Virus record (IMG/VR): IMGVR_UViG_3300017710_002137
Span: 17,209 to 81,208 of that record
DNA: 64,000 bases
Reading direction: 5' to 3' (one strand)
Origin: a virus
Shown here: positions 15,101 through 62,667 of the stretch, in pieces
How positions within the stretch are numbered: the stretch's first letter is position 1
Layout: each line of letters starts with the position of its first letter
Made by a program: the position numbers and the translations under genes
The notes under the pieces: generated by a model
Seen by the model: only the letters and a program-made list of their open reading frames with translations
Databases searched by the model: none
What the model was told of the DNA's origin: nothing

Positions 15101-15328
15101 GCTCTAATCAATGTATGTAACCTACCAAGACCTAATTTCCTTGTGATAGATGAAGGATTCGGTACATTAGATAGTGAGAACCTACAATCCCTATTTATGT
15201 TGTTTACATACCTTAAAACTCAGTTTGATTTCGTTATGATTATTTCACACATTGATTCAATGAGAGATGTTGTAGATGGTCTTATAGAGATTAAGAAAGA
15301 AAAAGGATTTTCTAATGTAAAATTTTAA
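12170..15328 (+). CDS. Fused Mre11/SbcD nuclease + Rad50/SbcC ATPase (gp47-gp46 fusion)
   Basis: ADLH, AGDI, GNHD, FHG and GDIH metallophosphoesterase motifs; Walker A PNASGKSS; coiled coil with CDIC zinc hook; CSGME signature; Walker B FLVIDEGFGTLD; ISH. Confidence 0.92.
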   Translation: MIINKVYHLADLHIRNLQRHKEYKQVFKKFLKQVKEDKIEDSLIYIAGDIAHAKTEMSPELVHEISWFLTECAKLRETVLITGNHDCNLNNSHRLDVLTPIIENLGNNRIHYLRDTGVYNIHNLTFVVYSILDDKENWPKGDTIDGENKIVLFHGPVNKAQTDIGYTVSSNSFQVDMFDGFDMAMLGDIHKRQTFGPGYEHIAYAGSMIQQNHGELLENHGYLLWDIPTRTFTEHHLHNDYGFLTVDVVDGKIPQWVYDEVGTKLPKYPRLRLRFTRTEASDMKRRITELKKLFKVAEVTVTRTDTIGQLKTNQKVNKNIVGNVKDETFQNSLIRDYLERQYLLEDEELDKIAEINSELNGQIDDSDSIGNILWTPKEFQFSNMFSYGEDNKVRFNKAQGIVGIFAPNASGKSSLFDALSFCIYDKTSRTNISKNILNNRKTNFYCKFNFEIDGIDYYIERRAKYVRRQTSVKVDVDFWRDNNGVIESLNGEQRKDTNKEIEKYLGKFEDFVLTALSLQGNNALFIDKSQSERKEILSQFIGVNIFDKLYQKAADENRDNATLIRKFKSDDFTTKLAEIDTDLKTNKNDYKLLEINQKALKDEEDVLNKRIISLNEKIVKLNADSGVSIEELEKRLKNLETKKDGVSTTKSSVQERITFREELQITLEEILDKFDEEDLEEGITKLKRLRKNLSNIDSEIEKINIKLESLYERKQHLDSHKYNEDCDICMENSKSILDTKSEVESKIKELEESLQHNEKEKLDLNIEIDSLKGYEDEWDKYKDAKDKEDKLDREISQLINKLSTTETEEIRLDTQITQQQQLIKEYYKNEKQIQKNKEIRDEISGVREKLTIVKDELKGYNTDILKLNGKVSALQNQKETIEDRINEVKDMESQSRLFDFYLNALSKDGVSYELIEKALPMIEGEVNNILAQIVEFGMQLEIDGKNINAYLVYGDQRWSLEMCSGMERFISGLAIRVALINVCNLPRPNFLVIDEGFGTLDSENLQSLFMLFTYLKTQFDFVMIISHIDSMRDVVDGLIEIKKEKGFSNVKF

Positions 15329-16205: not shown

Positions 16206-19200
16206 ATGGCAATTATCAAGAAATTTTCACCATTTCAAAATCTTAGTAACTTTTCAACATTTGTTGATGATGATAATCCAAATTCAGAATACTTTAAGAT
16301 TACTGAATTTAAGGAAACATTTACAGGTGGTAAAAACGGGTTTCTTATAGAAGGGTGTCCGGAATTAAAAGAAAGTTCTGAGGTTAAGATAGAACTACTT
16401 GATGTGGAGGGAAATCCCATATACTTCGAGCCTGGAGATGGTATACCAGAATATTATGAAGGTACATCTAAATTAATATCAGTTCATGTTTATGAGGATA
16501 CTCCAATTGGATTGGGAAAGATAACTATACTTGGTGAACTAAAACAATATAAAGATTCTTTTGGAGCTCTTGTAGATATACCCAATGAATGGAGGGGTGT
16601 TTACAATGTTAAGTGGGAAAGAACATTTCAGGTAAATAAAAATTTATCCAATGAAACAACTGTTAGGTTTTATAAAAGACCTTCAGTAACAATTACAGAA
16701 TTAATAAAACCCATATTTTCTAAATCTATTCCAACTGTAACTGATACTGGTCATGTACATGGGTTTTCTATAACACCATCTGTTGGTGAAAATATTACAA
16801 CATGGAGAGCTGGTACATCATATGGATTACGATTAACAAGTGGTTCTTGGGATGTTGATGTAGATGAAAATATTATTACAATTTCAAATCCTTCATATCA
16901 AGCTAGAATAATTGAAGTATTGGATTCGAAACAGGTACTTGTTGATATACCTTATACTGAAAATAATATTGTAACAGATTTTGAATCTGGTTCTTATTCT
17001 GTTACTTATACTGATTTTCAAAATCAAGTTGTTGGAGAAACTTCTTTAACAGGTTCATTTGCTAAAGTAGATATATCACAACTTAAAACTTTTGTTGGTG
17101 ATGTTGCTAGAGTAAAGGTATTTAGAAAATCAAGAAACGCTGTTGGTGATTTTCAATTTGTACAAGAATCAAAATTAGAATCATCAGAATTACTTAGAGA
17201 TATTACAACAACATCGGATACGGAATTGTCGTATGGTAGATTCGATGAAAACAACTTAACTAACTATTGGGTAACCTCATCTGATTCACATCCTACTTCA
17301 ATCAACTCAGATGTTTTATCTCAAGCAGTAAAGATTGATTATGATGAGAATGTAGGTGGTGTACAGAGATTAATAACATCAGAATCAATATCAGTATCAA
17401 GTGATGTTGAATATACACTAAACTTTAGAACATTACTAAGTGGTTCACTTGATGATAGTGGTAAAACAATAAGGGCGTTTTTTAGTTCATCAAACTTTAC
17501 ACAAGATTTTACAACAATAAGTGGTTCTGCTATTTATAGAGCAAGACAAAATATATCTGAAAATATTATATCTCAAAATACTGGTGATGCAAAATTAGTA
17601 TTCGAGGTTCAAGGTTCTGATTGGTACATTTCAAATGTATCTTTAAGAAATGCACAAGAATCATCATTTTCACCAGATGAATTTACTTTAATTCAAGATA
17701 TTCCAAGAAAAACTGCATCTGAAACATTTGATTTTAGATTTGAGTTTTATGATATCAATAACAATTATATACCTGTTGATGTTTCTGCTGTTGGTGTATT
17801 TAATGGTGGTAATGATTTTCCTACAAGTGCAAAATTATTAACATTTGAATCCGATAGAAATGCATTTAGATTTTCAAGTGGTTCGGTACAAAATCCAAAG
17901 AATCAACAAATACAACTTAAGATAACCCAAAATAACTTAACGGGTTCAATATTGTTTGAATCATCTGCATTTGATGTTGATGGTAATTATTTAAATCCAA
18001 ATGATTATACACAATATCCTGGTTTACTAACAGGTGTAAATCCAGCTGGAGGGTTAATTACTATAAATAATTTTACTGGTTCAAGAACTGATAATTCACC
18101 AACTCCTTTTGTTGGTTCTGTTATTTATACCGCTTCATTAGAAAACTTACAAGAGTTTGAAACTGTTTATAGATTAGAAGATGGTGATAATGCACCTCAA
18201 CTTATTGTAACTTCAAACGCAAATCAATTTACATATGAACCAACTGCATTAGAACCAAAGCCATCTGGTCAATCGATTACAGTTAGAGCTCAGAGAAAAA
18301 ACTTAGCATCTTTAATTACACCAATAGAAATAAATAGTGGTAGTAATAAACCTAAATTAAATTATGTAGATACTGTTAATGGTATAGATACATATACTTT
18401 AACCGCAACTACATTCTCAGCTTCTTTTTCCGATAACTCATTTGATGAAGTAACTTATTCATTTACTGGTTCGGATGTATTTGGTAATAAACAATCAGAT
18501 GAAATTACGATTTCAAAAGTAGTTAACTTTGATGGTGTATCTATAACTCTTACAAACGATTCAACTACATTTAGAGCAAATGGACAAGGAGCGGTTCTTG
18601 ATAATTTTGCAAGTGGTGATGGTGAGGTAGAAGTTAGAATTGCAAATAAAGAGATACAACATAGTGATGGACTAACTTCACCAAACAGATTTGATATTGT
18701 ATCCGCAACAGCAACAAATGTGACTGAGGCATATTCATCCTATACTACCAATGAATATGGTATTTCCTCATTATCTGCAGATAGTGGTTCTTTGATACTG
18801 AGTGTAAAATATCTTGCTGGTGATAATAGTACTTCACAATCTTTTCAGAAAAAAGTAAACTATACTAAAAACAGAATAGCATCCCCTTCTATTGTATTTG
18901 ATACTACAAATAAAACACAGAATGTAGATGCTAAATCAACGGGTGCACAATTAAGTTCATTTGATTCATCTACAATGGCTATTCGAGAATTCTATACAGG
19001 TTCTCTTACATCATTTTCTTCAGCTAATATCGATTTAACAATAACATCTGGTTCTAACGATGTAAGTGGAAATCCTTTAGTAACAAGGAGTGGATTAAGT
19101 TTATCTTATGGTGAATTACCAAATAATACAAACTCAACTCAAGTAGGATTAACTGCTACAGTAACAGATAGTGAAGGAACAAGTAGAGAGGTTAGTGATA

Positions 19201-22200
19201 CCGTTTCACTTTCTAAAACAAATGCTTCTGCACCAAATGTTGAGATACAAGTATATCCTTCATCTCAAACTATAACTGCAAACTCTGTTGGTAGTGGTTC
19301 AGCAACCCCATCTAATTTATCAATTGTGGTATCTGAAGGAGGAACAACAAGAACAATATCCTCAATTGGAACAATAACAACAACTGGTGGATTAAGTGTA
19401 AATACACCAACTTCTCCATTTACAACAATATCGTTTACTTCAGATGCATCTGATATGACATCTGATACTGGTACAATTACGATACCAGTTACAACAACAA
19501 ATAGTGAAGGAAGTTCTGTAACAAAAACTATAACTGCAATTGTTACAAGAGCACGAGAAGGTGAAACTCCCGTATTAGTTACTCTTACTCCACAGGCTCA
19601 AACTATAACTGCAAATTCTTTGGGTAGTGGAAGTGAATCACCACAAACTATTAGTGTAAGTGCAAAACAAGGAAGTACTGATGTTTTTGATTCTATGACA
19701 GTTTCATATAGTGGAGGTATAGGTGGAACGATTTCAAGTAATAACTTAACATTTACAGATACGGCATCTGATATGACTTCTGATACAGAAACTATAACAT
19801 TTGCTGTAACATATACAGATTCTGCAGGGGATACATCTACTGAAAACATTACTGCAAATATTTCGAGAACAAGAGCTGCAAGACCAAATGTTGAGGTTTC
19901 GGTTTCTCCAACAGGACAAACAATAGAAGCAAATTCGCGTGGTAGTGGTTCGGCAACTCCACAAACTTTAACAGTAAGGGCACTTGAGGGTGGTACGAGT
20001 AGATTTGAAGAAATCACTAATGTTTCATTTTCAAATGGATTGGATGGTGATGATTCTCCATTATCAAACACAGTAGCATTTACATCAACTGCAACTGATA
20101 TGACATCTGATACCGGTACTGCAACTGTAACTGTTTCATACCAAGATAGTGAAGGAACACTTGGTACTAAAGATGTGATAGCAACAGTATCAAGAGTTAG
20201 AGTGGCTCAACCAGGTATAAATTTCTCAGTTACTCCTGCCGCTCAAACAATTGCTGCTAATTCAAATGGTACTTTAACTGGTACAATACAAGATGTAAGA
20301 GTTGATGGGTTTGAAGGTAATAGTGCTTTAACATATAATCAAGGAACTCTTAGTGCTGGTCAATATAAAATTACTAATGTAACTGGTGTAAGTGTTTCAG
20401 ATACAACACCATCGGATGAGAATATTGATATTACAGGTTTTAGTGGAGATAGTGCAACTGGTACTGCTTTTATTGGATTTAAAGATAACGAAGGAACTAC
20501 TGGTACAACAACTATTAAATTTACACTTTCTAAATCTAAAAAAGCAACACCAGTTGTTGCGATATCTGCAAATCCACAATCACAAACAGTTGATTCAAAT
20601 TCAGCATTTTCATCAGTTGGAACACCATCTGCTGTAACAATAATTGTTAACGAAGGTGGTAGTAATTATACACATACGACAGGTACGGTCACTGCAAATA
20701 AATTTAAAATTACTGGTGTAACAAATGGTACAAATAATAATGATGGAACTATTACACCAACCACACCAAGTGATGCCAATGGAACAACTTCTGTTGTAAC
20801 TTTAAGTTACACAAACTCAGAAGGTAGAGAATTTACATCGAAAACAATTACGGTTAATGTTGGTGTTGCAGTTCAAGGAGATGATGGAGCGGCTGGTCCT
20901 GGTATTACATTCGTTGGAGATTGTTCTGATTTAGCAAGTACATTTACTTGGACAAGTGATGAGAACACAAGACAAGTTACTAAGGTTGGTAGTTCGTATT
21001 ATATTACAAAAGATGCGGCCGATGGTGTAGCAAAATCAACAACAGGATGTCCTGGTGATACTGGTTGGGGAACTTACTTTGAAACAATGACATCTTTTGC
21101 ATCGGTTGCTACCGATGTACTTTTTGCTCAAGATGTTTACGCTAACAAAACAGTTAATATTGGTACATCTCCAAATGGAACTGAACCTGTAATCGCATTA
21201 AATGCAGATGCAAGTAATGATTATGCAAATCCATACATTGGAATCGGTACATCTGCTTATAATGGCACTGGTATATTCTTAGGATATAATAGTGATGTTG
21301 CTAAACTATCCTTAAAATCATCAACAAATTCGTTATTGTGGGATGGTACAAACCTTACAGTAAATGGTGGTGGTACATTCTCAGGTGATTTATCTGCAGC
21401 TGGTGGTACTTTTGAAGGTAGTTTATCAGTAGGTTCTGGTGATGATATATTAAAAGTTGATTCGAGTGGTAACTTACATATCGGAGATGCTAATTATGCG
21501 GATGCACCATTTAAGGTATCCAATGATGGTACACTTACAGCAACTGGAGCAACAATTAGTGGTGCAATTACTATAACTTCTGGTGATACCGCGGATGCAA
21601 TTGCTCAAGCAAAATCAGTTGCAGATGCGGCAACAGGAAGTGCCGCCACTGCTCTATCGGCCGCTCAAGGTGCTCAACAAGATGTTGATAACTTGAACAT
21701 ACCAACAGTACCAACTACATTTAATCCAAATAACTTGTCAAATGTTGGTACACCATCTGTTAGTGGATTACATTTAGGTGAGGATAAAATGGGATTCTAT
21801 AATGCAACTGCACCAGCTGGATGGAAATCTTATTTAGATAGTAGTGGTAACTTTTTTCTTGCAGGTACAAATAGTGGAGCTGCCGCTCCATTGAGTTTTA
21901 CAGGTACAACCGGTATCTTATCAGTTACAACAGGTGCAACAATTGGTGGTTGGACAATTGATTCAAATTCGATACACACTGGTACAAAAGGAAGTAGTGG
22001 AAACTTTACATCAGCAGGTGCTATAACAATTGGAAGTAGTGGTTTTATATCAGCAAATGGATTTTATATTGATACTGATGGTAACTTTGTACAAGAAACC
22101 ACAAAAACTAAACTAAAGAAAGATGGTGTTGCAACACCAAGAGCTTTATCTAATTTATTTGATATTGATTCATCTGAAATATTTATTAAAACTGCTGCAA

Positions 22201-23411
22201 AAATTGGTAGTGGAACTCAAAAGGGTAGTTTCTCAACTGCGTTTGCATTTGATACCGATGGTACGTTTTCTTTAAATAATGATTTTAGAATAAAAGGCTC
22301 ATCATCTGGAATCGGGACTCGATTTAATACTATATCTACCAACTTCTCAGCGATTGATACTCGAGACGGTTTCTGTGTATTACCTGGTACTAAAATAATT
22401 TCTAAAAGAGGTGAGATAAATGTAGAAGATACAAAAGAAGATGATGTAATCAAAATATTTAACTTTGAAACCAAAGAATGGGGATGGTCATCTATTGATG
22501 AAATTATTACTAATAAAGTACAAGGATGGAGTAAGATAGAAACAGAATTAGGTAAAAAGTTAAAATGTTCTAATTCACATTTACTATATCATCCTGATTA
22601 TCCTAATTGTGAAATTTCTGTTGATAAACTCGGAGTTGGTGGTGAGTTGTATGTTTATGCTGATGGAAGATTAGTTATTGATAAAATAAAAAGTATAGAA
22701 ACTTTTGATGAAGAAGTTGAGGTTTGGAATTATGAATTAGATGTAGTGCATAATTATATTTCAGATGGAATACTTTCACATAATATGTCTGCAAAATTAG
22801 ACGCAGTTGTAACATTAGGACACGCATATAAAAAGAGAATATCGGAAAATATTTCAAGAGGTGATTTAGTAAAAGTAGATTCAAATAATGAACTTATAAA
22901 AGTATCATCAGCAAAAGATACATCGGTGGTTGGTATTCTTTGGGAAAAATATGAATTAAAAATAACAAACCTAATAACTGGTTCCGTAGAGGATGGATAC
23001 ACTCCTTTTACAGCATCAGAAGAAATGGTATCCGCTTCATATTTGGATTCATTTGGTAATTATTTAACAAATAATGAAACTGGTTCAAAAGAAATGTGGA
23101 GAGTAGCATCTCTTGGGGATAGTATTGAATGGAATATATCCGGTTCTTACTTTAGTTTAACAGGATTTAAAATGTGTAATCAAGGTGGTGATGTTGTACC
23201 TGGTGATTTACTTTGTTCTTCAGATACTCCTGGTTATTTAATGAAACAACCATCAGAGTGGGTAGTAACAGGATTTAATGGAGATTCTACTCCAATTTAC
23301 GAAGAAAGACAATCACAATGTTCTTATACAGTAGCAAAATCTATGGAATCATCTTCGTGGGATTCTAATGGTAAAATGGAAGGCGTGTACGGATATCTAT
23401 ATTGTGGATAA
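16206..23411 (+). CDS. Long tail fibre/spike protein with internal repeats, Hint domain and C-terminal chaperone/peptidase-like domain
   Basis: 2401 aa, Ser/Thr/Gly-rich; ~110-aa beta repeats; fibre-like motifs APFKVSNDG and IGGWTI; Hint domain; C-terminus GDVVPGDLLCSSDTPGYLMKQ...YTVAK...YCG. Confidence 0.8.
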   Translation: MAIIKKFSPFQNLSNFSTFVDDDNPNSEYFKITEFKETFTGGKNGFLIEGCPELKESSEVKIELLDVEGNPIYFEPGDGIPEYYEGTSKLISVHVYEDTPIGLGKITILGELKQYKDSFGALVDIPNEWRGVYNVKWERTFQVNKNLSNETTVRFYKRPSVTITELIKPIFSKSIPTVTDTGHVHGFSITPSVGENITTWRAGTSYGLRLTSGSWDVDVDENIITISNPSYQARIIEVLDSKQVLVDIPYTENNIVTDFESGSYSVTYTDFQNQVVGETSLTGSFAKVDISQLKTFVGDVARVKVFRKSRNAVGDFQFVQESKLESSELLRDITTTSDTELSYGRFDENNLTNYWVTSSDSHPTSINSDVLSQAVKIDYDENVGGVQRLITSESISVSSDVEYTLNFRTLLSGSLDDSGKTIRAFFSSSNFTQDFTTISGSAIYRARQNISENIISQNTGDAKLVFEVQGSDWYISNVSLRNAQESSFSPDEFTLIQDIPRKTASETFDFRFEFYDINNNYIPVDVSAVGVFNGGNDFPTSAKLLTFESDRNAFRFSSGSVQNPKNQQIQLKITQNNLTGSILFESSAFDVDGNYLNPNDYTQYPGLLTGVNPAGGLITINNFTGSRTDNSPTPFVGSVIYTASLENLQEFETVYRLEDGDNAPQLIVTSNANQFTYEPTALEPKPSGQSITVRAQRKNLASLITPIEINSGSNKPKLNYVDTVNGIDTYTLTATTFSASFSDNSFDEVTYSFTGSDVFGNKQSDEITISKVVNFDGVSITLTNDSTTFRANGQGAVLDNFASGDGEVEVRIANKEIQHSDGLTSPNRFDIVSATATNVTEAYSSYTTNEYGISSLSADSGSLILSVKYLAGDNSTSQSFQKKVNYTKNRIASPSIVFDTTNKTQNVDAKSTGAQLSSFDSSTMAIREFYTGSLTSFSSANIDLTITSGSNDVSGNPLVTRSGLSLSYGELPNNTNSTQVGLTATVTDSEGTSREVSDTVSLSKTNASAPNVEIQVYPSSQTITANSVGSGSATPSNLSIVVSEGGTTRTISSIGTITTTGGLSVNTPTSPFTTISFTSDASDMTSDTGTITIPVTTTNSEGSSVTKTITAIVTRAREGETPVLVTLTPQAQTITANSLGSGSESPQTISVSAKQGSTDVFDSMTVSYSGGIGGTISSNNLTFTDTASDMTSDTETITFAVTYTDSAGDTSTENITANISRTRAARPNVEVSVSPTGQTIEANSRGSGSATPQTLTVRALEGGTSRFEEITNVSFSNGLDGDDSPLSNTVAFTSTATDMTSDTGTATVTVSYQDSEGTLGTKDVIATVSRVRVAQPGINFSVTPAAQTIAANSNGTLTGTIQDVRVDGFEGNSALTYNQGTLSAGQYKITNVTGVSVSDTTPSDENIDITGFSGDSATGTAFIGFKDNEGTTGTTTIKFTLSKSKKATPVVAISANPQSQTVDSNSAFSSVGTPSAVTIIVNEGGSNYTHTTGTVTANKFKITGVTNGTNNNDGTITPTTPSDANGTTSVVTLSYTNSEGREFTSKTITVNVGVAVQGDDGAAGPGITFVGDCSDLASTFTWTSDENTRQVTKVGSSYYITKDAADGVAKSTTGCPGDTGWGTYFETMTSFASVATDVLFAQDVYANKTVNIGTSPNGTEPVIALNADASNDYANPYIGIGTSAYNGTGIFLGYNSDVAKLSLKSSTNSLLWDGTNLTVNGGGTFSGDLSAAGGTFEGSLSVGSGDDILKVDSSGNLHIGDANYADAPFKVSNDGTLTATGATISGAITITSGDTADAIAQAKSVADAATGSAATALSAAQGAQQDVDNLNIPTVPTTFNPNNLSNVGTPSVSGLHLGEDKMGFYNATAPAGWKSYLDSSGNFFLAGTNSGAAAPLSFTGTTGILSVTTGATIGGWTIDSNSIHTGTKGSSGNFTSAGAITIGSSGFISANGFYIDTDGNFVQETTKTKLKKDGVATPRALSNLFDIDSSEIFIKTAAKIGSGTQKGSFSTAFAFDTDGTFSLNNDFRIKGSSSGIGTRFNTISTNFSAIDTRDGFCVLPGTKIISKRGEINVEDTKEDDVIKIFNFETKEWGWSSIDEIITNKVQGWSKIETELGKKLKCSNSHLLYHPDYPNCEISVDKLGVGGELYVYADGRLVIDKIKSIETFDEEVEVWNYELDVVHNYISDGILSHNMSAKLDAVVTLGHAYKKRISENISRGDLVKVDSNNELIKVSSAKDTSVVGILWEKYELKITNLITGSVEDGYTPFTASEEMVSASYLDSFGNYLTNNETGSKEMWRVASLGDSIEWNISGSYFSLTGFKMCNQGGDVVPGDLLCSSDTPGYLMKQPSEWVVTGFNGDSTPIYEERQSQCSYTVAKSMESSSWDSNGKMEGVYGYLYCG
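19230..20870 (+). repeat. About five tandem ~110-aa (Ig-like) repeats in the tail fibre
   Basis: Recurring P-x-x-QT(I/V)-x-(A/S)NS. F-T-x-x-A-(S/T)-DMTSDT occurs three times, with (N/D)SEG-type turns. Boundaries are approximate. Confidence 0.75.
22374..22784 (+). other. Hint (intein-like) domain, aa 2057-2193 of the tail fibre, without homing endonuclease
   Basis: N-terminal CVLPGTKI, block B LKCSNSHLL, block F/G VWNYELDVVHNYISDGILSHN. The next residue is Met. Confidence 0.88.
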
Positions 23412-23421
23412 AAAATAATTA

Positions 23422-24414
23422 ATGAAGGTTTTTGTAACAACAGGTTGTGGTAACATCATTCAAGGTGGTGCTGATATGTGGACTAATAATTTTATAGAAT
23501 TAGTTTTACCTCATCTTTCTGAATACTATATTTTGGTAGATTCTAAAAAACCAATTGGATGGAAAGATACATATCATCTTGAGAAAAGTGGTAAATTACA
23601 CTTTCACTTAGAAAACGAAGAAAAAACAGATTTTATTTTAAGAGTTTGTAAGGAAATTCATTTCTTACATGCAAACTACCATAAAAGAGAACATCTTTGG
23701 AAACATAAAGATAAGTGGGGAACTATTTTTGTACAAGCATATTTACCAGATATGTTAGATTATGGAGATTCACTAAGACAGTTTAATACAAGTGTAGTAG
23801 AAGAAGATGTAGATTATTTACTTACTCATTGTAAGAAAAGAATTTGGATTGGAAATAATCCTTCTCGTATCTTTGGTAAGTTTAAAACTGATACCATACC
23901 AAACTTTTATGAATTTAAACAAAATAAACCATTAAATAAAATTAATAATAAACTTGGATTTACTTCTCGAATTGAATCAAGAAAAAATGTGCATTATTTA
24001 GATGGATTACCATCTTATGTTTTGAGTGGTTACTATGATTGGAAAAACATATCTGAAACGAACAGGTTTGATTTCTCTAAGGTTAAATACTTTAAATGGA
24101 ACATTGATATACTTGAATCGTTTATGAACCTTAAATGGAGTATTTCACATTCATGTCATACTAACGAACCATTTGGTTACTCCATCTTTCAGGCAGTAGA
24201 TTGGGGTAAGTTGCCTATCTTAGATGAGAATTGGGGAGAAGTTGATTACAAATATAGAGCATCTACCAAACAAGAATTTAAAGAAGTGTATGAAACTATA
24301 TTATCAGATAATCATGAAACACACTTAAAACAATTTAATAATTTAAAACAATATTTAAAATCCTTTGATGATAAAAATAGGTGGTCATCGGAGGTTGTTA
24401 GTATTTTTAATTAA
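23422..24414 (+). CDS. GT-B glycosyltransferase (GT4-like)
   Basis: N-terminal GGA loop, SRIESRKN, NEPFGYSIFQA...GKLPI motif. Confidence 0.7.
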   Translation: MKVFVTTGCGNIIQGGADMWTNNFIELVLPHLSEYYILVDSKKPIGWKDTYHLEKSGKLHFHLENEEKTDFILRVCKEIHFLHANYHKREHLWKHKDKWGTIFVQAYLPDMLDYGDSLRQFNTSVVEEDVDYLLTHCKKRIWIGNNPSRIFGKFKTDTIPNFYEFKQNKPLNKINNKLGFTSRIESRKNVHYLDGLPSYVLSGYYDWKNISETNRFDFSKVKYFKWNIDILESFMNLKWSISHSCHTNEPFGYSIFQAVDWGKLPILDENWGEVDYKYRASTKQEFKEVYETILSDNHETHLKQFNNLKQYLKSFDDKNRWSSEVVSIFN

Positions 24415-24425
24415 TATATTTTTAT

Positions 24426-24564
24426 ATATTTATATACGTTTACTGATTTTGACCATACTTATAAACATGGGGGTTTGGGGGTAGTGCAAGACACTAAGAC
24501 AACTGACAAATAAAAAGACAAATTAAATACCTATAACTAAGACACTAAAGTAGTTATGACACTA
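24426..24564 (+). repeat. Intergenic element: late motif, GGGGG-TTT-GGGGG and six GACA(C/A) direct repeats
   Basis: AAGACACTAA at 24488 and 24539; GACA also at 24498, 24505, 24517 and 24558; G-tracts at 24469-24481. Confidence 0.6.
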
Positions 24565-49070: not shown

Positions 49071-49079
49071 ATATTTATA
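49071..49079 (+). promoter_or_regulatory. Putative late promoter ATATTTATA
   Basis: Recurrent motif 21 nt before ATG 49101, with SD-like AAGGTG between. Confidence 0.6.
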
Positions 49080-49100: not shown

Positions 49101-52100
49101 ATGAATGAACTTTCCAAATTTCTCGTAGAGAGTATAATGGAGGATGCGAATCCTATTAAAAAAACAGTAGTTATCTATGTGGGTAGGTTTCAACCTATGC
49201 ACAAAGGACACTATGGTACTTACCAACACCTTGTCAAAAAGTTCGGTAAGGATAATGTTTATGTTGGTACATCTGATAAGGTTGAAAAACCTAAATCACC
49301 TTTTAACTTCAAAGAGAAGGTGAAAATTATGACTACTATGTTTGGAATACCAAAATCCAAAATACATAAAGTCAGAAATCCATACAAACCCACAGAAATT
49401 CTTAAAAAGTTTGATGAGAAAACAACTGCATTCGTAACTGTTGTTGGTGAGAAAGATAAAAGTAGATTAAAGCCAGATAGTGGTAAATACTTTCAATCAT
49501 ACAAAGGAGAACCATCTGTGGGATATAGGGATGGTGGTTATGTTTATGTTGCACCTCAAAGTGGTGGTGGAATAAGTGGTACAGAAACTCGTAATGGTTT
49601 ATCGGTTGGTTCTGATGAACAGAAAAAGGATTTCTTTAAGAAACGAGCGTATGGAAAGTTCAACGCAACTATCTTTAAGATGATTACTGATAAACTCGAT
49701 GAGGGAATTGAAATTTCTAAAGAGATGATTGAGGAGTGGTTAATCAATGAGAGTTCTAAGATGGGAAGTGGTCAAGCAGATGATGGGCCAAACTTCTTTT
49801 TTCCCAATTACGATGTATTTTCCAAGATAAATGTAGATAGAGCAACACGAATTGGTTATGAGGTAGTTAATATGATTTCTAACAAAGAGTTAGAAGATAT
49901 TTACGACCATCCAATTTATCCCAATGGGCCTGTTGGAGCGGTAACACCTTTTCCTGCTGGTATCTTGGGTACAACAACTGCAAATAACCAAGTAGATATC
50001 TATTCAACTGATGCTTATTCTAAGTGGTTTAAGCATGTAACTCGTAGTGCATCAATGGTTGGTTATGAGTTAGTAAAAGGATTGGGAATCAATAAGGATG
50101 TAAAAGATGCATCGTTAGATTCTCAAAAAGGTGATAAGAAAGCACAACAAGAGTATGAAGCATCTTTAAATGAAAATATAGTACTACCAATTAAAGTTGG
50201 GGATACTATTATGACTGGTAGATTTAAAAACAAGAAAACAATTGTTAAATCAATCGGTAAAGATGAACATGGGATGCCTACTATTAATGGTAGAAAAGTA
50301 GTTAACTTCAGAATGGTTAAGGAAGGGTTTATATCAGAACTTGCAGGAACAGCTGTAAAGTGTAAAAAGTGTAATCACTCTTGGGAAATTGAATCTGAAG
50401 ATACCGAAAAGTACTTATGTCATTCATGTGGATGGGATTCTCAGAAACAAGAGTATGATTTTGATGCATTTGATTCTTGGAAAGAGAAAATGGGTTTGAA
50501 TGAAGAACTCGATGAACGAGGGAAAATGAGACCTTCTGATAAATTGAGAAGAAAAGCGGCAATGGCTGGTAAGAGAGCTCAAATAGCAAGAAGAAGAGCA
50601 AGAACGATGAAAAGAAGAAAACCTCTTGCTAAACTTAAGAAGATTGCTTACAAAATGGCATACAGACAAGTTTATGATGAGTTTGCAAAAGATTTATTTC
50701 CTGATATCAAAAAATCTGATTTAAGTATAAAACAATCACAAGTAGTTCACAAAAACGTAGTTAGAAAAAAAGGTAGAATAATGAAAAGAGCTAAGTTTAG
50801 ATTTCTACCAGCTCTTAGACAAAAAGAATTTGATAAGTTTCAAGGTAAAAACGAAAACATGATTGGGTATGCAGGACCTGAAGATATGAAACGTTTTGAT
50901 AAACAAAATAAGGAATATAGAAAAACAGCAGATTCCGATAAAGAGTATCAATACGAACCAATCAAAGAAGTAAATGAATTCTTTTACATGGATTTTAAAA
51001 AGTATGTTTATAAAAACAGAAAACAAATCAACCAAAAGATAAAAGGATTATCAGATAAAGAAAAAAAGAAGTTTTTAGAGTTACTTTGGAAAAAACAAAT
51101 TGGTAAAGGATTTGGTAAAGATGTAGATGGTAGTGAATTACACCAAATGTTAAAAAAAGACAAAGTAGTTAAAGAAGGATTAAAAGAATTAGGAATAAAA
51201 GATTTTAAATCGTTATTTAAGAAAATGCCTTCTGATTTACAAAAGAGAGTTTACAATCTAAAGAACTTTGGACAGAGAGTAGATAAACATCCTGAAGGAA
51301 ATGTTCTTAAACACACAATCACAGTTGTAAATCGTTCAATCAAAGAAGATGATATTGATATTGCAATTGCAGCAATGTTCCATGATATAGGAAAAGATGA
51401 AACTGCTGGTATCCATCCAAAGAAAGGACATATTACTCACTTCGGTCATGAGAAAGTATCTGCGAACTTGGTAAACAAATACAAAAAATGGATTCAATCA
51501 GTTGGTGGAGATGTGGATTCGGTTCATTATATCGTAAAAAATCATATGAGATACAAACAACTATCTGATATGAGACCAAAGAAACAGGCAGATTTAAAAT
51601 CACATCCTTTATTTAGTAAACTAAGTAAATTTTCTAAACACGATAGAGGTGGATTGGATGAATCTACTTTAAAATTAAGAGTTCCATCAGATATTCTAAA
51701 AATTCAAAAAGGATTTAAAAAGAATGGTAAGAAACTTTATGTAGTTGGTGGAGCTGTAAGGGATGCTATACTTGGAAAATCACCAAAGGACTTTGATTTG
51801 GCAACAGATGCAAAACCAGATGAGGTTTTAAAGATTGCCAAGGATTTAGGAATGAAAACTGTTGAGGTTGGTAAATCATTCGGAGTTGTAATGGTTGGTG
51901 GACATGAAATAGCAACATTTAGAAAAGATATTGGTAAAGGTAGGAGACCTTCATCTGTTGATTATACAGATATCGAGGGTGATGTACGAAGAAGAGATTT
52001 AACTATTAATGCTTTATTCTATGATATCGATAGAAAAGAGATAGTTGATTTAGTTGGTGGTATAAAAGATTTACAAAAGAAGAAAATCAGAACAGTTGGT

Positions 52101-54041
52101 AAGGCAGAAGAAAGATTTGATGAGGACCCGTTAAGAAAACTAAGAGCTTTAAGATTCCAAGCAAGGTTGGGTGGTAACTTAGATAAAGAATTACTTGATG
52201 CTTTACAAAAAGACCCATCACTTAAAGGAGTATCATTTGAAAGAGTTAGAGATGAGGTTATAAAATCAATCAAATCAGCTAAAGATACTAAAAAGTATAT
52301 GGAGTTGAATGATAAGATTGGATTCACTTCACTAATATTCCCAAATCTTAAAATATCTAAACCTTACATCAAGGATAATGATTATATCTTGTTCCTTGCA
52401 TCACTATTCAAAAAGAATTCACCTTCGGTATTAGGAAAACAATTAAACAAATTAACTTATTCTAATGACGAAAAAAATAATATTGTATTTTTAGTATCAT
52501 TACAACACTTTAGACCAGAAGAAATTGTAGTATTCAAGAAACTACAAGAAAAAACATCTTTATCAGATGACCAAATCCTTAAATTTGGTAAGTTGATTGG
52601 GAAGGATATGAAAAAGTTCGTAAACTTTAACTTATCTATTGGTGGAAAGGATGTTCCATCTGATATCAAAGGACCTGAAATAGGATTGTGGATTAAAAAT
52701 AAAGAAAAGGAAAAATTTATGAATGAAATAGAACAACTAATAAGTGATATTGATGATAAGTTGGTTGAAATGTTTTTACCAAACACTAAAACACCACAAC
52801 AACTAATAAAAGAAAACATAAACGAATCTAAATTACTCCAAGAAGGTGGTGCGTATGGACATATGTCTCACCCATTTGATACTGATATCAATTTAACCTT
52901 TGGACAACTTAAAGATATCGTAAATAGAGCACTTGAAGGTACACTTGAGTACACCAGAGAGAAAACCGATGGTCAAGCTCTTGCTATTTCATGGAGAGAT
53001 GGGAGATTAGTAGCAGCAAGAAACAAAGGACACTTAAAAAACAAAGGTGAGAACGCTTTAGATATCAAAGGTGTATCAGATAAGTTCCAAGGTAGAGGAG
53101 GTTTATCAGATGCATACAATTATGCTATGAAAGACCTTTCAAATGCAATAAAATCCCTTTCAGATAAACAAAGAGATAAGGTATTCAAACAAGGAGCGTG
53201 TTTTATGAACCTTGAAGTGATATATCCAACATCAGTTAATGTGATTCCTTATGGCCAAGCGTTACTTGTATTTCATGGAACTATGGAATATAACGATGAG
53301 GGTGTTGCTATAGGTGAAAATGGTGAAGCAGCAAGAATATTAGCTGGTATGATTAAACAAGTGAACAAAGATGTACAAGATAACTACACTATTCAAGGCC
53401 CACCTGTTGTAAAATTACCAAAATCACAAGATTTATCTAAAAAACGTAGTAAATATTCATCACAGATATCTAAATTACAGAAAGAATTTAGTTTAAAGGA
53501 TACTGATGGTGTTGCAAACTATCACCAAGCATGGTGGGAACAATGGGTTGATAAAAATTCACCATCAACACTCGATAACAAAACCAAAATGGGGTTAGTT
53601 AAGAGATGGGCATTCATGGATAAGAAGTTTAGATTAGATAAAAAGAATATTACTGATGAAAAAACATTAGAGTGGGCTAAGAAAACAGATAAAGATGACC
53701 AAAAAAAGATTTCTAAACAGAATCTAATGAAGTTTGAACAGATTTTCTTAGGATTAGGTGCAGAAGTATTAGAATTTACTTCATCTGCTTTAACTGTTAA
53801 TCCTGATTCCGCAGTTCGTGATATGAAAAAACGAATTGATAAAACAATCAAAGATGTTAAGAAATCAGGTGACCCAAAGAAGATAGAAAAACTTAAATTA
53901 GAACTTGGTAGATTAAATTCTATTGGTGGTTCTAATAAAATTGTACCAAATGAAGGTATTGTATTCTTATATAATGGTAATACTTTCAAACTCACAGGAA
54001 CATTTGCATCAGTAAATCAAATACTCGGTATTTTCTTCTAA
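49101..54041 (+). CDS. 1646-aa multidomain protein: HxGH nucleotidyltransferase, small modules (Zn ribbon, basic domain), HD phosphohydrolase, CCA-adding-type nucleotidyltransferase, ATP-dependent ligase-like domain
   Basis: GRFQPMHKGH...ISGT (aa 28-161); CKKC/CHSC (421-443); HPEG..H/HDIGK (730-765); GGAVRD/DFD/RRD/EDPLR (883-1012); EKTDG (1287-1291)...EGIVF (1618-1622)...K1630. Confidence 0.85.
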   Translation: MNELSKFLVESIMEDANPIKKTVVIYVGRFQPMHKGHYGTYQHLVKKFGKDNVYVGTSDKVEKPKSPFNFKEKVKIMTTMFGIPKSKIHKVRNPYKPTEILKKFDEKTTAFVTVVGEKDKSRLKPDSGKYFQSYKGEPSVGYRDGGYVYVAPQSGGGISGTETRNGLSVGSDEQKKDFFKKRAYGKFNATIFKMITDKLDEGIEISKEMIEEWLINESSKMGSGQADDGPNFFFPNYDVFSKINVDRATRIGYEVVNMISNKELEDIYDHPIYPNGPVGAVTPFPAGILGTTTANNQVDIYSTDAYSKWFKHVTRSASMVGYELVKGLGINKDVKDASLDSQKGDKKAQQEYEASLNENIVLPIKVGDTIMTGRFKNKKTIVKSIGKDEHGMPTINGRKVVNFRMVKEGFISELAGTAVKCKKCNHSWEIESEDTEKYLCHSCGWDSQKQEYDFDAFDSWKEKMGLNEELDERGKMRPSDKLRRKAAMAGKRAQIARRRARTMKRRKPLAKLKKIAYKMAYRQVYDEFAKDLFPDIKKSDLSIKQSQVVHKNVVRKKGRIMKRAKFRFLPALRQKEFDKFQGKNENMIGYAGPEDMKRFDKQNKEYRKTADSDKEYQYEPIKEVNEFFYMDFKKYVYKNRKQINQKIKGLSDKEKKKFLELLWKKQIGKGFGKDVDGSELHQMLKKDKVVKEGLKELGIKDFKSLFKKMPSDLQKRVYNLKNFGQRVDKHPEGNVLKHTITVVNRSIKEDDIDIAIAAMFHDIGKDETAGIHPKKGHITHFGHEKVSANLVNKYKKWIQSVGGDVDSVHYIVKNHMRYKQLSDMRPKKQADLKSHPLFSKLSKFSKHDRGGLDESTLKLRVPSDILKIQKGFKKNGKKLYVVGGAVRDAILGKSPKDFDLATDAKPDEVLKIAKDLGMKTVEVGKSFGVVMVGGHEIATFRKDIGKGRRPSSVDYTDIEGDVRRRDLTINALFYDIDRKEIVDLVGGIKDLQKKKIRTVGKAEERFDEDPLRKLRALRFQARLGGNLDKELLDALQKDPSLKGVSFERVRDEVIKSIKSAKDTKKYMELNDKIGFTSLIFPNLKISKPYIKDNDYILFLASLFKKNSPSVLGKQLNKLTYSNDEKNNIVFLVSLQHFRPEEIVVFKKLQEKTSLSDDQILKFGKLIGKDMKKFVNFNLSIGGKDVPSDIKGPEIGLWIKNKEKEKFMNEIEQLISDIDDKLVEMFLPNTKTPQQLIKENINESKLLQEGGAYGHMSHPFDTDINLTFGQLKDIVNRALEGTLEYTREKTDGQALAISWRDGRLVAARNKGHLKNKGENALDIKGVSDKFQGRGGLSDAYNYAMKDLSNAIKSLSDKQRDKVFKQGACFMNLEVIYPTSVNVIPYGQALLVFHGTMEYNDEGVAIGENGEAARILAGMIKQVNKDVQDNYTIQGPPVVKLPKSQDLSKKRSKYSSQISKLQKEFSLKDTDGVANYHQAWWEQWVDKNSPSTLDNKTKMGLVKRWAFMDKKFRLDKKNITDEKTLEWAKKTDKDDQKKISKQNLMKFEQIFLGLGAEVLEFTSSALTVNPDSAVRDMKKRIDKTIKDVKKSGDPKKIEKLKLELGRLNSIGGSNKIVPNEGIVFLYNGNTFKLTGTFASVNQILGIFF

Positions 54042-55432: not shown

Positions 55433-57025
55433 ATGGCTAAACAGAGTTTAAAGGAAATAATTAAACTTGAGTATCAAAAATGTGCACAAGACCCAATCTA
55501 CTTTATGAAAAAGTATTGTATGATTCAGCATCCTGTGCGAGGTAAGATTCCTTTTCACTTATATCAGTTTCAAGAAAGAACTTTAGACCAATTCGCAGAA
55601 CATCGTTATAACATTATCCTTAAATCTCGACAAACAGGTATCTCAACCTTAACTGCGGGATTTTCACTTTGGAAAATGTTATTCAATCAAGATTTTAATG
55701 TATTAGTAATTGCAACTAAACAAGAAGTTGCCAAGAACCTTGTAACGAAGGTTCGTGTAATGAATCAGTACTTACCATCATGGTTAAAACAAACAACAGT
55801 AGAAGATAACAAACTATCCTTAAGATACTCGAATGGTTCTCAGATAAAAGCAACTTCAGCCGCTGGTGATGCTGGTCGTTCTGAAGCATTATCCTTATTG
55901 GTATTTGATGAAGCTGCATTTATTGATAAGATTGAAGATATTTGGATATCAGCACAATCTACCTTATCAACGGGTGGTAATGCAATTATTCTTTCTACAC
56001 CAAATGGTGTCGGAAATTTCTTTCATAAAACTTGGGTAGGTGCTGAAGAAGAAGAAAACGGATTCAATCCAATCAGATTACATTGGAGTGTTCATCCTGA
56101 AAGAAATCAAGATTGGAGAGATGAACAAGAAGTACTATTAGGAGTAAAGGGAGCCGCACAAGAATGTGATTGTGATTTCGTTTCTTCTGGTGATACTGTG
56201 ATTGACCCTCAACTTCTTATGTTCTATAAAGAATCCTTTTGTCAAGAACCAATAGAGAAAACAGGATTCGATGGAAACCTTTGGAAGTGGGAATATCCCA
56301 ACTATAATAAAACATATATGGTAGTTGCGGATGTTGCTCGTGGAGATTCAACTGATTATTCAGCATGTCATGTTATAGATGTTGAAGAAGCTTCACAAGT
56401 TGCAGAATACAGAGGTAAATTGGATACTAAAGATTTTGGAAACTTTTTAGTTTCATTGGCAACTGATTACAATCAAGCACTATTAGTAATTGAAAACGCA
56501 AATATTGGTTGGGCAGTTATACAACAAGTAATTGATAGAGGATATGGAAATCTTTTCTACATGAGTAAAGATTTAAAGTATGTAGATGTTGAACATCAAC
56601 TATCAAATAGATACCGTGCCGAGGAACGAGGGATGGTTGCAGGATTTTCGACAACTTCTAAAACTCGACCTTTGATTATATCAAAGTTGGATGATTATTT
56701 TAGAGATAAATCTGTAACAGTTCGTTCAACACGATTAATTGATGAATTGTTTACATTTATATGGAGAGGAAATAGAGCCGAAGCCATGAGTGGATACAAT
56801 GATGATTTAACAATGGCATTCGCAATCGGATTGTGGGTTAGAGATACTGCACTTAGATTAAGACAAGAAGGAATTGATTTAACAAAACAAGCATTAGGTG
56901 GTATTGGAGCACATTCATTGGATGTAGTTGGTATGGGATTTGGTGGTAACTCTTCAATGGAAGATAATCCTTGGAAACAAAGGGTTGGTGATAGAGATGA
57001 GGATTTAACTTGGTTAATTAAATAA
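55433..57025 (+). CDS. terL: Terminase large subunit (T4 gp17-like)
   Basis: LYQFQ, KSRQTGIST (Walker A-like), LLVFDEAAF (Walker B), STPNG, nuclease DVARG...DYS, E-N, DDL. Confidence 0.95.
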   Translation: MAKQSLKEIIKLEYQKCAQDPIYFMKKYCMIQHPVRGKIPFHLYQFQERTLDQFAEHRYNIILKSRQTGISTLTAGFSLWKMLFNQDFNVLVIATKQEVAKNLVTKVRVMNQYLPSWLKQTTVEDNKLSLRYSNGSQIKATSAAGDAGRSEALSLLVFDEAAFIDKIEDIWISAQSTLSTGGNAIILSTPNGVGNFFHKTWVGAEEEENGFNPIRLHWSVHPERNQDWRDEQEVLLGVKGAAQECDCDFVSSGDTVIDPQLLMFYKESFCQEPIEKTGFDGNLWKWEYPNYNKTYMVVADVARGDSTDYSACHVIDVEEASQVAEYRGKLDTKDFGNFLVSLATDYNQALLVIENANIGWAVIQQVIDRGYGNLFYMSKDLKYVDVEHQLSNRYRAEERGMVAGFSTTSKTRPLIISKLDDYFRDKSVTVRSTRLIDELFTFIWRGNRAEAMSGYNDDLTMAFAIGLWVRDTALRLRQEGIDLTKQALGGIGAHSLDVVGMGFGGNSSMEDNPWKQRVGDRDEDLTWLIK

Positions 57026-61897: not shown

Positions 61898-62074
61898 ATG
61901 ACTAAGAGAGAGTTGTATGATATAATCAATGAGGAAATTGTTAACTTTAAAAAAGGAAAGATTAACGAAGAACTCAATGAATCTGATAAGGATTTAATAA
62001 GAAAAATCATCAGACAGGAAGTATCTGCAATCTTTTTCGATTTATTTAAACGAAGAAAAACTTGGGGAGCATAA
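61898..62074 (+). CDS. Small hypothetical head-module protein (58 aa), not in the ORF track
   Basis: Translated by hand: MTKRELYDIINEEIVNFKKGKINEELNESDKDLIRKIIRQEVSAIFFDLFKRRKTWGA. Its TAA overlaps the protease ATG (TAATG). Confidence 0.75.
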   Translation: MTKRELYDIINEEIVNFKKGKINEELNESDKDLIRKIIRQEVSAIFFDLFKRRKTWGA

Positions 62075-62667
62075 TGGGACAATTATTAATAGAAACAAAC
62101 CTATTCGAAGGTAAAGTAAATGAAGATGATAGTGGAAGAACTATTGTTAAGGGTATTTTACAAAGAGCAGGTGCTGAAAATCAAAATGGAAGGATATATC
62201 CTAAAGAAATTTTGATGAGAGAAGCTAAAAAATACGAAACACTTATTAAAGAAAGAAGAGCACTTGGTGAATTAGACCATCCAGATTCTTCTGTAATCAA
62301 TCTAAAGAACGTATCTCATAACGTAAGAGAGATACATTGGGATAATGATGATTTAGTAGGAACAGTTGAGATTCTACCAACTCCAAGTGGTAATATCTTA
62401 AAAGAACTACTTAAAGCAGGTATCCTTTTAGGTATATCATCAAGAGGTATGGGTTCAGTAGAACCTCTATCAGGTGGTAAAGTACAAGTAGGTGAAGATT
62501 TTGAATTGATTGGTTGGGATTTTGTTTCTAATCCATCAACTCATGGAGCATTTATGACTCCAATGAACGAATCTGTTAATAAAGAACTTATTAAACAAGG
62601 TGAAGTTTGTAACGAGTGGTGTAAATCACAAGATTTGATGAGAGAAATTATAACAGAAATAGGTTAA
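62074..62667 (+). CDS. Prohead core protease (T4 gp21-like)
   Basis: NQNGRIYP, ALGELDHP, NVSH, TPSG, GISSRGMGS, WDFVSNPSTHGA. Probable start ATG 62074. Confidence 0.95.
   Translation: MGQLLIETNLFEGKVNEDDSGRTIVKGILQRAGAENQNGRIYPKEILMREAKKYETLIKERRALGELDHPDSSVINLKNVSHNVREIHWDNDDLVGTVEILPTPSGNILKELLKAGILLGISSRGMGSVEPLSGGKVQVGEDFELIGWDFVSNPSTHGAFMTPMNESVNKELIKQGEVCNEWCKSQDLMREIITEIG

Follow-up and report, generated by a model that had tools for sequence, protein, structure and literature searches.

This report concerns a single gene of an uncultured marine T4-like large phage, which encodes a protein of 1646 amino acids (aa), here called P0001, within a 64,000-nucleotide window (positions 17,209 to 81,208 of the IMG/VR record IMGVR_UViG_3300017710_002137, which has 81,208 bp and an estimated completeness of 41%). 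In one uninterrupted chain, P0001 joins an NMNAT-like enzyme, an HD phosphohydrolase, a class II tRNA nucleotidyltransferase and a divergent ligase-like domain, and its gene, which looks late, adjoins the genes of the phage head. On balance, we favor the view that this chain would serve the repair of RNA ends, most likely of tRNA, and that it would be delivered to the next host cell in the capsid. A first-pass annotation of the same DNA had been confined to positions 51189-54041, which correspond to aa 697-1646 (the last 950 codons) of the 1646-codon open reading frame (ORF), and had described there a tandem tRNA-repair triad of HD phosphohydrolase, CCA-adding enzyme and RNA-ligase-like domain. 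When we checked the motif positions in the translation, all features that it named were found at the residues given.

In the course of events that we infer, the chain would be made late, together with the head genes, and its 10-residue leader, which is similar to the capsid-targeting sequence (CTS) of T4, would bring it into the prohead. A protease of the T4 gp21 type would probably cut the chain at (L/I)xE seams, and the enzymes would enter the new host with the DNA. There, they would mend RNA ends, most likely those of tRNA: the HD enzyme would remove 2',3'-cyclic or 3' phosphates, the CCA enzyme would rebuild 3' ends, and the ligase, with K1288 as the predicted nucleophile, would seal breaks that bear a 5' phosphate. 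In its most far-reaching form, which we put forward only tentatively, this view would mean that a whole lineage of marine T4-like phages stocks its capsids in advance with an RNA-repair kit that is diced by a protease and varies between strains. Such a kit would consist of a new RNA-ligase family and the NMNAT-like enzyme, with HD, CCA and Pnk-type cassettes swapped at the protease seams, and it might repair tRNA damage caused by host nucleases before any phage gene expression.

The features of the protein are as follows (all on the + strand).
49101 to 54041, +: P0001, modular multi-enzyme protein, one uninterrupted ORF of 1646 aa
49101 to 49130, +: leader of 10 residues, MNELSKFLVE, which resembles the capsid-targeting sequence of T4 and is conserved across the family
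49158 to 49700, +: NMNAT-like HxGH nucleotidyltransferase, with GRFQPMHKGH at aa 28-37 and ISGTETR at aa 158
49743 to 51167, +: conserved remainder of the N-block, aa ~215-689, mapped to relatives by BLAST, with a zinc ribbon and a very basic stretch
50361 to 50429, +: CxxC...CxxC zinc ribbon within the N-block, aa 421-443
51168 to 51671, +: HD phosphohydrolase cassette, aa ~690-857, optional in relatives, assigned by Pfam HD with limits from BLAST breakpoints
51672 to 52730, +: class II tRNA nucleotidyltransferase cassette, aa ~858-1210, optional and movable, assigned by Pfam, PHROG, NCBIfam, PDB and motifs
52833 to 54038, +: ligase-like (covalent nucleotidyltransferase) domain, aa 1245-1646, assigned by invariant motifs and profile alignments
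53319 to 53897, +: Lys-rich insert, ~190 residues long (aa ~1407-1599), that separates motif IIIa from motif IV and is flanked by two Rnl1-like blocks

Conserved ends and exchangeable cassettes

Homologues were collected by a word-indexed search restricted to long proteins, which gave 2340 hits at E<=1e-10 among 8000 candidates scored. Counts for close relatives refer to the best 120 of these 2340, P0001 included, and the block maps were made by BLAST against 119 of them. Within this set, the C-domain is 91-100% identical and the N-block ~70-88%, total length ranges from 974 to 1853 aa, and the Pfam content is variable; the single-ORF state is kept in relatives of 1540-1853 aa. The BLAST blocks delimit the N-block (aa 1 to ~600-696), the HD cassette (~690-857), the CCA cassette (~845-1210) and the C-domain (from ~1200-1245). 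Counted by motifs, 53 of the 120 proteins carry neither cassette, 24 carry HD only, 3 carry CCA only, and 40 carry both. In five of these 40, CCA occupies an alternative slot after N-block residue ~467-483 and thus lies ahead of HD.

As a close relative may carry, lack or relocate either of HD and CCA without regard to the other, the HD-CCA-ligase triad is no fixed unit. All three modules of the proposed tandem are real, but the tandem arrangement itself does not stand as a unit, since HD and CCA are optional and movable between proteins whose C-domains are at least 91% identical. The order noted in the first-pass annotation, with HD before the polymerase head, holds for P0001 and is reversed in the five relatives just mentioned. 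We also considered HD-CCA as one rearranged CCA enzyme of the E. coli type and rejected this, as either of them can be present without the other and their slots vary. A search for direct repeats within the gene found nothing that would account for cassette exchange.

Most constantly, the ligase-like domain is accompanied by the NMNAT-like enzyme, whose HxGH motif was present in 100 of 150 diverse representatives, whereas HD and/or CCA were present in only 7 of the 150. The Microcystis phage Mel-JY01 has the bare fusion of N-block and C-domain, with a length of 639 aa. Judged from these sequences, the conserved pair is the NMNAT-like enzyme plus the ligase-like domain, and not HD or CCA. The NMNAT-like region spans aa 25-200 and matches Pfam CTP_transf_like above its cut-off (1.1e-5); its NCBIfam matches are of the NMNAT type, and its best PDB matches, all weak (1e-3 to 5e-3), are archaeal and NadM-type NMN adenylyltransferases. 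A nucleotide-sugar gene cluster lies upstream of the ORF at 49101, and we examined the HxGH domain as a possible part of it. This was rejected, as the same N+C fusion adjoins terminase in Mel-JY01 and in the uncultured phage LR756508.

Homology to LR756508 reaches aa 360 of the N-block. The insertion slots that relatives use within the N-block lie after aa ~410, ~467, ~585-591, ~623 and ~652. A small conserved module at aa ~365-410 (50193-50330), with the pattern VGDTI..GRFKNKK..V.SIGKDE.G.PTING.KV.NFRMV, ends exactly at the first of these slots, and in P0018 a module of this type is joined directly to the ligase-like domain.

The HD domain is real, as had been claimed from its HPEG-x4-H and HDIGK motifs (at 730 and 761): Pfam HD (PF01966) matches aa 745-822 with E 1e-6 and 29.4 bits, above the cut-off of 22, and HPEG and HDIGK are kept in all 66 HD cassettes. 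Its best PDB match is to residues 305-385 of chains 3wfo-3wfs (E 7e-4), whose residues 22-256 match the CCA module. Because this best match lies in class II nucleotidyltransferase chains, the label of a CCA-enzyme-associated HD type is reasonable, if weakly supported.

For the class II tRNA nucleotidyltransferase, too, the first-pass assignment is confirmed. The head model PolyA_pol (PF01743) matches aa 879-997 with E 3.3e-30 and 105.4 bits, far above the cut-off of 23, and all catalytic motifs are present (GGAVRD at 883, DFD at 897, RRDLT at 964 and EDPLR at 1008). DxD, RRD and EDxxR are kept in 48/48 CCA cassettes. The PHROG match is to tRNA nucleotidyltransferase (1e-60), and the best PDB matches are the CCA-adding enzymes 6ibp (2e-33) and 1miv (2e-30). 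Related phage genes are annotated as tRNA nucleotidyltransferase, with matches in 504 phage records.

What else is carried between the conserved ends was surveyed by a Pfam scan of 30 long representatives, which found CTP_transf_like in 25, DUF5661 in 8, AAA_33 and Zeta_toxin in 4 each, PolyA_pol and HD in 3 each, and an intein or Hint domain, a SprT-like and a ROS/MucR domain in 1 each. One relative, P0031 (1930 aa, C-domain 60% identical), combines an NMNAT-like enzyme, DUF5661, an AAA_33 kinase (2.2e-19), HD, PolyA_pol and the ligase-like domain. Its kinase matches the RNA-repair kinase Pnkp1 (4xrp) with 8e-10; with the T4 Pnkp kinase domain, it shares 28% identity over 149 aa (2e-5). As this kinase stands directly upstream of HD-CCA-ligase, it completes the classical heal-and-seal set, which favors a role in RNA repair.

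Two complete relatives (276 and 214 kb) carry 4 and 3 tRNA genes, respectively, and also a separate 272-aa zeta/AAA_33-like kinase. No model for Rnl1, Rnl2, RtcB or an ATP- or NAD-dependent ligase matched in these two genomes at E<=1. The C-domain is thus the only ligase candidate there, for RNA or for DNA, a result that cuts both ways. In jumbo phages, RNA ligases, kinases, phosphoesterases and CCA-adding enzymes have been described as separate genes in the accessible part of PMC7824862.

As a side aspect, the 272-aa zeta-toxin/AAA_33-like kinase of one complete relative (G001; L085 1360-2178) begins with the leader-like sequence MSLKSLITE, which ends in (L/I)xE. In P0057, P0073, P0082 and P0084, a kinase of this kind precedes the HxGH block in the same chain.

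The ligase-like domain

The C-terminal domain carries the motifs of covalent nucleotidyltransferases, namely motif I with K1288-x-D-G (EKTDG, 1287-1291), motif Ia with R1307-N-K1309, motif III with E1372, motif IV with E1618-G (EGIVF at 1618) and motif V with K1630 (FKLTG at 1629). In an alignment of 138 full-length family representatives, K1288, D1290 and G1291 are 100% conserved, R1307-N1308, E1372, H1392, E1618-G1619, K1630 and the N-terminal GGxxGH are likewise invariant or nearly so, and the motif residues K-x-D-G, R-N-K, E, E-G and K are all invariant or at least 85% conserved. As these residues are invariant or nearly invariant across the 138 representatives, the ligase motifs are more than a chance occurrence.

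The family is large. An exhaustive HMMER search of 1.84 billion representatives found 1777 cluster representatives at E<=1e-3, of which 557 reached <=1e-30; these relatives are clusters at 50% identity. The family has no Pfam, PHROG or NCBIfam model and is unnamed in the sources checked, and among the main texts covered by a literature search, none was found to describe this fusion or these ligase-like proteins. The Rnl1 family model PF09511 (the T4 RnlA family is PF09511 plus PF20819) gave no match on the domain at E<=10, and a six-frame search with PF09511 of the record and four relatives gave none at E<=1.

We compared the domain with a 118-sequence profile of the T4 RnlA family using hhalign. 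The two best independent blocks were collinear on T4 Rnl1, the first covering Rnl1 92-193 with motifs I, Ia, III and IIIa (P 0.024) and the second covering Rnl1 224-242 with motifs IV and V (P 0.054). With the insert of ~190 residues removed, a single alignment extended over Rnl1 92-243 with a score of 35.2 and a P of 3.8e-4, which is the best of 8 trimmings, one other giving 1e-3 and six 0.011-0.024; we rate these statistics as moderate. None of 80 block-permuted templates reached 35.2 (mean 17.8, standard deviation 3.3, maximum 28.5), and the reversed template scored 17.4. In the alignment, K99, D101, G102, K119, E159, E227, G228 and K240 of T4 Rnl1, which we take to be its essential residues, coincide with identical conserved residues of the family, and K35 of T4 Rnl2 aligns to K1288.

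The RNA-ligase-like character that had been read from motifs I, IV and V is thereby made likely, as these motifs are present and conserved and the best alignment is with T4 Rnl1. Going by motifs and profiles, the C-domain is most likely a divergent covalent nucleotidyltransferase that stands nearest to Rnl1, outside the Rnl1 family model.

A 16-sequence profile of the C-domain found no ligase among PDB sequences, its sole match being the tail of eS6 (3e-4). For the insert, the family profile gave repeated weak PDB matches (3e-4 to 2e-3), which fall on the Lys-rich C-terminal part of the ribosomal protein eS6 of plants. Composition is the probable cause, but seven chains all align over the same ~100 columns. 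Some relatives carry the ligase-like domain at another place than the C-terminus: in P0146 (1693 aa) it occupies residues 3-408 and is followed by ~1285 further residues, and in P0142 and P0150 it is internal. Standalone C-domains of ~414 aa exist as well and are 70-83% identical.

Position in the head module and signs of a possible capsid delivery

The window has a G+C content of ~30%, and its + strand holds nearly all genes. The elements that bear on delivery are the following.
49071 to 49079, +: promoter-like motif ATATTTATA(TA), 22 nt before the start at 49101; the same motif precedes head-module genes
4153, 6222, 7386, 16174, 24426, 29528, 43824, 49071, 54065, 57030, 59235, 61362 and 63657, +: copies of ATATTTATA(TA) found by motif scan
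55433 to 57025, +: terminase large subunit (TerL), syntenic with Mel-JY01 and LR756508
57484 to 59211, +: gp20-type portal, 27% identity to T4 gp20, E 1e-24
62062 to 62667, +: T4 gp21-type prohead protease, phrog_207 5e-49, 33% identity to T4 gp21, E 4e-22

The order of the 49101 gene, the homologue of the gene at 54100, TerL, portal and the homologue of the gene at 59284 is kept in Mel-JY01 and LR756508, where the C-domains are 37-40% identical; a literature search found no publication on phage Mel-JY01. LR756500 has a standalone copy of the C-domain elsewhere, with no terminase within 12 kb. A search for related loci with the distant standalone homologue P0114 found none, so the genomic context of distant standalone copies is known from the one record LR756500.

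The leader MNELSKFLVE ends in L-x-E, the motif cut by gp21-type proteases. In length and pattern, it is like the beginnings of the internal proteins (IPs) and Alt in the T4 record, where IPII and IPIII begin with MKTYQEFIAE and Alt with MELITELFDE. Along the chain, 6 of the 9 clusters of cassette breakpoints lie at most 3 residues from the glutamate of an (L/I)xE site (413, 468, 623, 696, 854 and 1223-1248).

The motif ATATTTATA occurs 14 times in the window, 13 times on the + strand, compared with 5.6 expected (standard deviation 2.5), and 0 of 100 shuffles reached 14. The starts at 4196, 6249, 16206, 49101, 54100, 57058 and 59284 each have a copy 26-48 nt ahead of them. As the motif is common to the 49101 gene and to head genes, it suggests their co-expression. 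The T4 late promoter consensus TATAAATA was not enriched on the coding strand of the window, whereas its near-inverse ATATTTATA was. Most copies lie 20-50 nt before starts of structural or late-looking genes, which makes the motif a candidate late promoter.

From the position in the head module, the leader, the gp21-type protease and the shared motif, delivery in the capsid, which the first-pass annotation had raised as a possible injection of the protein, appears plausible. There are precedents for such cargo: the T4 internal proteins are diverse, counter host defenses and have only the CTS in common, according to the accessible part of PMC3012670, and polyvalent phage proteins are predicted to be packaged into virions, according to that of PMC5512222.

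Weighing of the proposed function

A number of results speak against RNA repair by a capsid-delivered chain. With regard to the ligase, aa 1229-1646 gave no ligase match in Pfam, PHROG, NCBIfam or PDB sequences (for Pfam and PDB even at E<=10, apart from weak contacts of 2 of 16 members with an NAD-ligase model, given below), the ~190-aa insert splits the ligase-like core, and the second lysine of motif V is replaced by the conserved Thr1632, to which K242 of T4 Rnl1 aligns. The profile statistics for the ligase assignment are weak to moderate. With regard to the accompanying enzymes, the HDIG model TIGR00277 falls just short of its cut-off (24.9 vs 27.6 bits), and HD domains are functionally broad. 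HD and CCA are both absent from 53 of the 120 close relatives and their slots differ, which gives no indication of an obligatory coupling to the ligase-like domain. The class II cassette scores nearly as well with a poly(A) polymerase model as with CCA models, as detailed below.

Neither P0001 nor the 81-kb record has an AAA_33 or T4 Pnkp match that would indicate a 5'-OH polynucleotide kinase, in accordance with the earlier remark that no such domain is visible, and a kinase cassette exists in the relative P0031. Likewise, there is no tRNA gene in the window or the 81-kb record. Both absences say little, because the record is 41% complete. With regard to delivery, some standalone C-domain proteins begin at GGAxGH and lack the leader, (L/I)xE is a common motif (19 sites in the protein vs 13.8 expected), and 3 of the 9 breakpoint clusters (~585-591, ~652 and ~1192-1200) have no such site nearby.

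The modularity of the chain raises the question of whether its enzymes share a pathway at all. As polyvalent cargo, the chain could carry unrelated counter-defense or takeover enzymes, with the NMNAT-like enzyme rebuilding NAD+, HD hydrolyzing signaling nucleotides, CCA maintaining tRNA and the C-domain performing some other adenylylation or sealing, and the triad would have arisen merely as cassettes were shuffled. The independent gain, loss and movement of HD and CCA between relatives with C-domains at least 91% identical would fit this account well, as would the NMNAT-like enzyme as the constant partner and those cassettes of the 30 long representatives that are not of RNA-repair types (DUF5661, the zeta-toxin-like kinase, SprT-like, ROS/MucR and intein). 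The concept is also a published one (PMC5512222, accessible part). However, the cassettes that recur in this lineage, which are the CCA-associated type of HD, CCA and the Pnk-type kinase of P0031, are those to be expected around an RNA ligase, and HD and PolyA_pol each reach 3/30 in the same tally. We therefore consider cargo without a common pathway unlikely, though deserving of attention.

RNA repair, as favored here, requires that the C-domain acts on RNA. It could instead be a phage DNA ligase for nicks arising in replication, recombination or packaging, perhaps NAD+-dependent and fed by the NMNAT-like enzyme. Such a ligase would supply what the two complete relatives lack, namely any match to an ATP- or NAD-dependent DNA ligase model at E<=1, and it would give a meaning to the conserved NMNAT-like fusion. 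When 16 members were scanned singly against Pfam, two gave a weak match to PF01653, the adenylation model of NAD ligases (0.034), and the K115 region of E. coli LigA aligns to motif I (P 0.016). Yet an alignment through motifs I-V was obtained only with the Rnl1 profile, and the comparison of the C-domain with the T4 DNA ligase gp30 gave no alignment. DNA ligases carry a C-terminal OB domain and motif VI, for which there is no room here, as the domain stops 16 residues past motif V. Moreover, the gene lies in the head module and not among replication genes, and many phages use the host ligase. A DNA ligase is thus distinctly improbable.

Re-tailing of tRNA, the part that the RNA-repair reading assigns to the class II cassette, depends on CCA specificity. 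If the cassette were a poly(A) polymerase, or an enzyme adding A or CC to RNAs other than tRNA 3' ends, no CCA re-tailing would take place. The scores leave room for this: the NCBIfam CCA models TIGR02692 and PRK13299 give 175.5 bits (cut-off 438.8) and 173.3 bits (cut-off 290), and the pcnB subfamily model gives 168.8 (cut-off 305.65), which is within 7 bits. As these scores are near-equal and all below the NCBIfam cut-offs, CCA and poly(A) specificity are inseparable by sequence. In addition, E. coli poly(A) polymerase (3aqm, 8e-29) follows closely behind the CCA enzymes among PDB matches (2e-33). Nevertheless, the top PDB, NCBIfam and PHROG matches are all CCA enzymes or tRNA nucleotidyltransferases, related phage genes, with matches in 504 phage records, are annotated likewise, and the complete relatives have tRNA genes. 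Taken together, we see only a slim chance that the cassette does not act on tRNA 3' ends.

That the C-domain serves chiefly in the structure or assembly of head or tail, with ligase motifs as a relic or secondary activity, is very improbable: its constant place beside terminase and portal over distant phages, its much stronger conservation (91-100%) than that of the N-block (~70-88%) and the T4 record, which annotates rnlA (gp63) as "RNA ligase and tail fiber protein attachment catalyst", would agree with it, but the invariant residues are exactly the catalytic K, D, G, E, E-G and K, as one would expect if catalysis is under selection, and the standalone copy of LR756500 has no terminase within 12 kb.

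Relation to known systems

By analogy, P0001 is like a fusion of three known themes: heal-and-seal repair, capsid-targeted cargo and polyvalent proteins. The first theme is represented by T4 Pnkp (PseT) with Rnl1 and by bacterial Pnkp1-Rnl-Hen1 (4xrp). The ligase-like domain aligns to motifs I-V of Rnl1 with identical catalytic residues, a phosphoesterase, here of the HD type, accompanies the ligase, and the kinase of P0031 matches both T4 Pnkp and Pnkp1. Unlike T4 Rnl1, P0001 has no PF09511 match, an insert of ~190 aa between motifs IIIa and IV and a Thr for the second motif V lysine. In comparison with T4 Pnkp, its healing phosphoesterase would be HD and not HAD, and it has no kinase, the component that defines a complete repair system. 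Furthermore, its modules are united in one chain with NMNAT-like and CCA enzymes, and its gene, which looks late, belongs to the head module, whereas pseT and rnlA are found among metabolism genes in the T4 record.

The second theme is that of IPI-III and Alt of T4. The leader of P0001 shares with theirs the length of 10 residues, F at position 7, L/I at 8 and E at 10, and gp21- and gp20-type head genes are present in the same phage. The T4 cargo is strain-variable behind a conserved leader (PMC3012670, accessible part), which resembles the situation here. In T4, however, the cargo is encoded by separate small genes, whereas the present family has one chain of 1000-1900 aa with swap-in slots.

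Polyvalent proteins, the third theme, are also large multidomain proteins of variable content that are encoded beside portal and terminase genes and for which packaging and injection have been predicted (Iyer et al., 2017; PMC5512222, as far as accessible). In the accessible text of that work, the sole mention of RNA ligases is that 2H domains in polyvalent proteins do not associate with them. Its anchor domains MuF, portal and MPTase were not seen in our family, and a SprT-like peptidase was present in 1 of the 30 relatives scanned.

P0001 may further be compared with multifunctional HD-bearing CCA enzymes (the E. coli type and 3wfo-3wfs). It shares with them the class II head with all catalytic motifs, and the best solved match of its HD is the HD segment of 3wfo-3wfs. 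It differs from them in that HD is N-terminal to the head, that the cassettes are separable and occur alone or in reversed order, and that the NCBIfam equivalog cut-offs are not reached.

Phage RNA repair, with T4 Pnkp and Rnl1 acting against anticodon nucleases, and capsid-delivered counter-defense, with the T4 internal proteins and Alt, are both classics of phage biology. To our knowledge, the two have so far been treated as separate themes. If the proposed function is correct, this family would join them, as repair enzymes made late and carried in the head would be ready at injection while translation is under attack. The ligase-like family, with its 1777 clusters lacking a model in Pfam, PHROGs and NCBIfam, is a large one, and its constant fusion to an NMNAT-like enzyme could point to a chemistry of ligation that is linked to NAD+. 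That strains exchange cassettes while the ends stay fixed would amount to a natural experiment on which repair activities matter against which hosts.

Further observations

Elsewhere in the window, a 2401-aa ORF at 16206-23411 is preceded by the ATATTTATA motif and gave no PHROG match, and a gene at 12170-15328 encodes an SbcC-like protein of 1052 aa (PHROG 8e-58). In LR756508 (L089, 484 kb), the portal at 20395-24555 is one ORF of 1386 aa. Two large insertions, which may be inteins, divide its homology to the portal of the window into three blocks.

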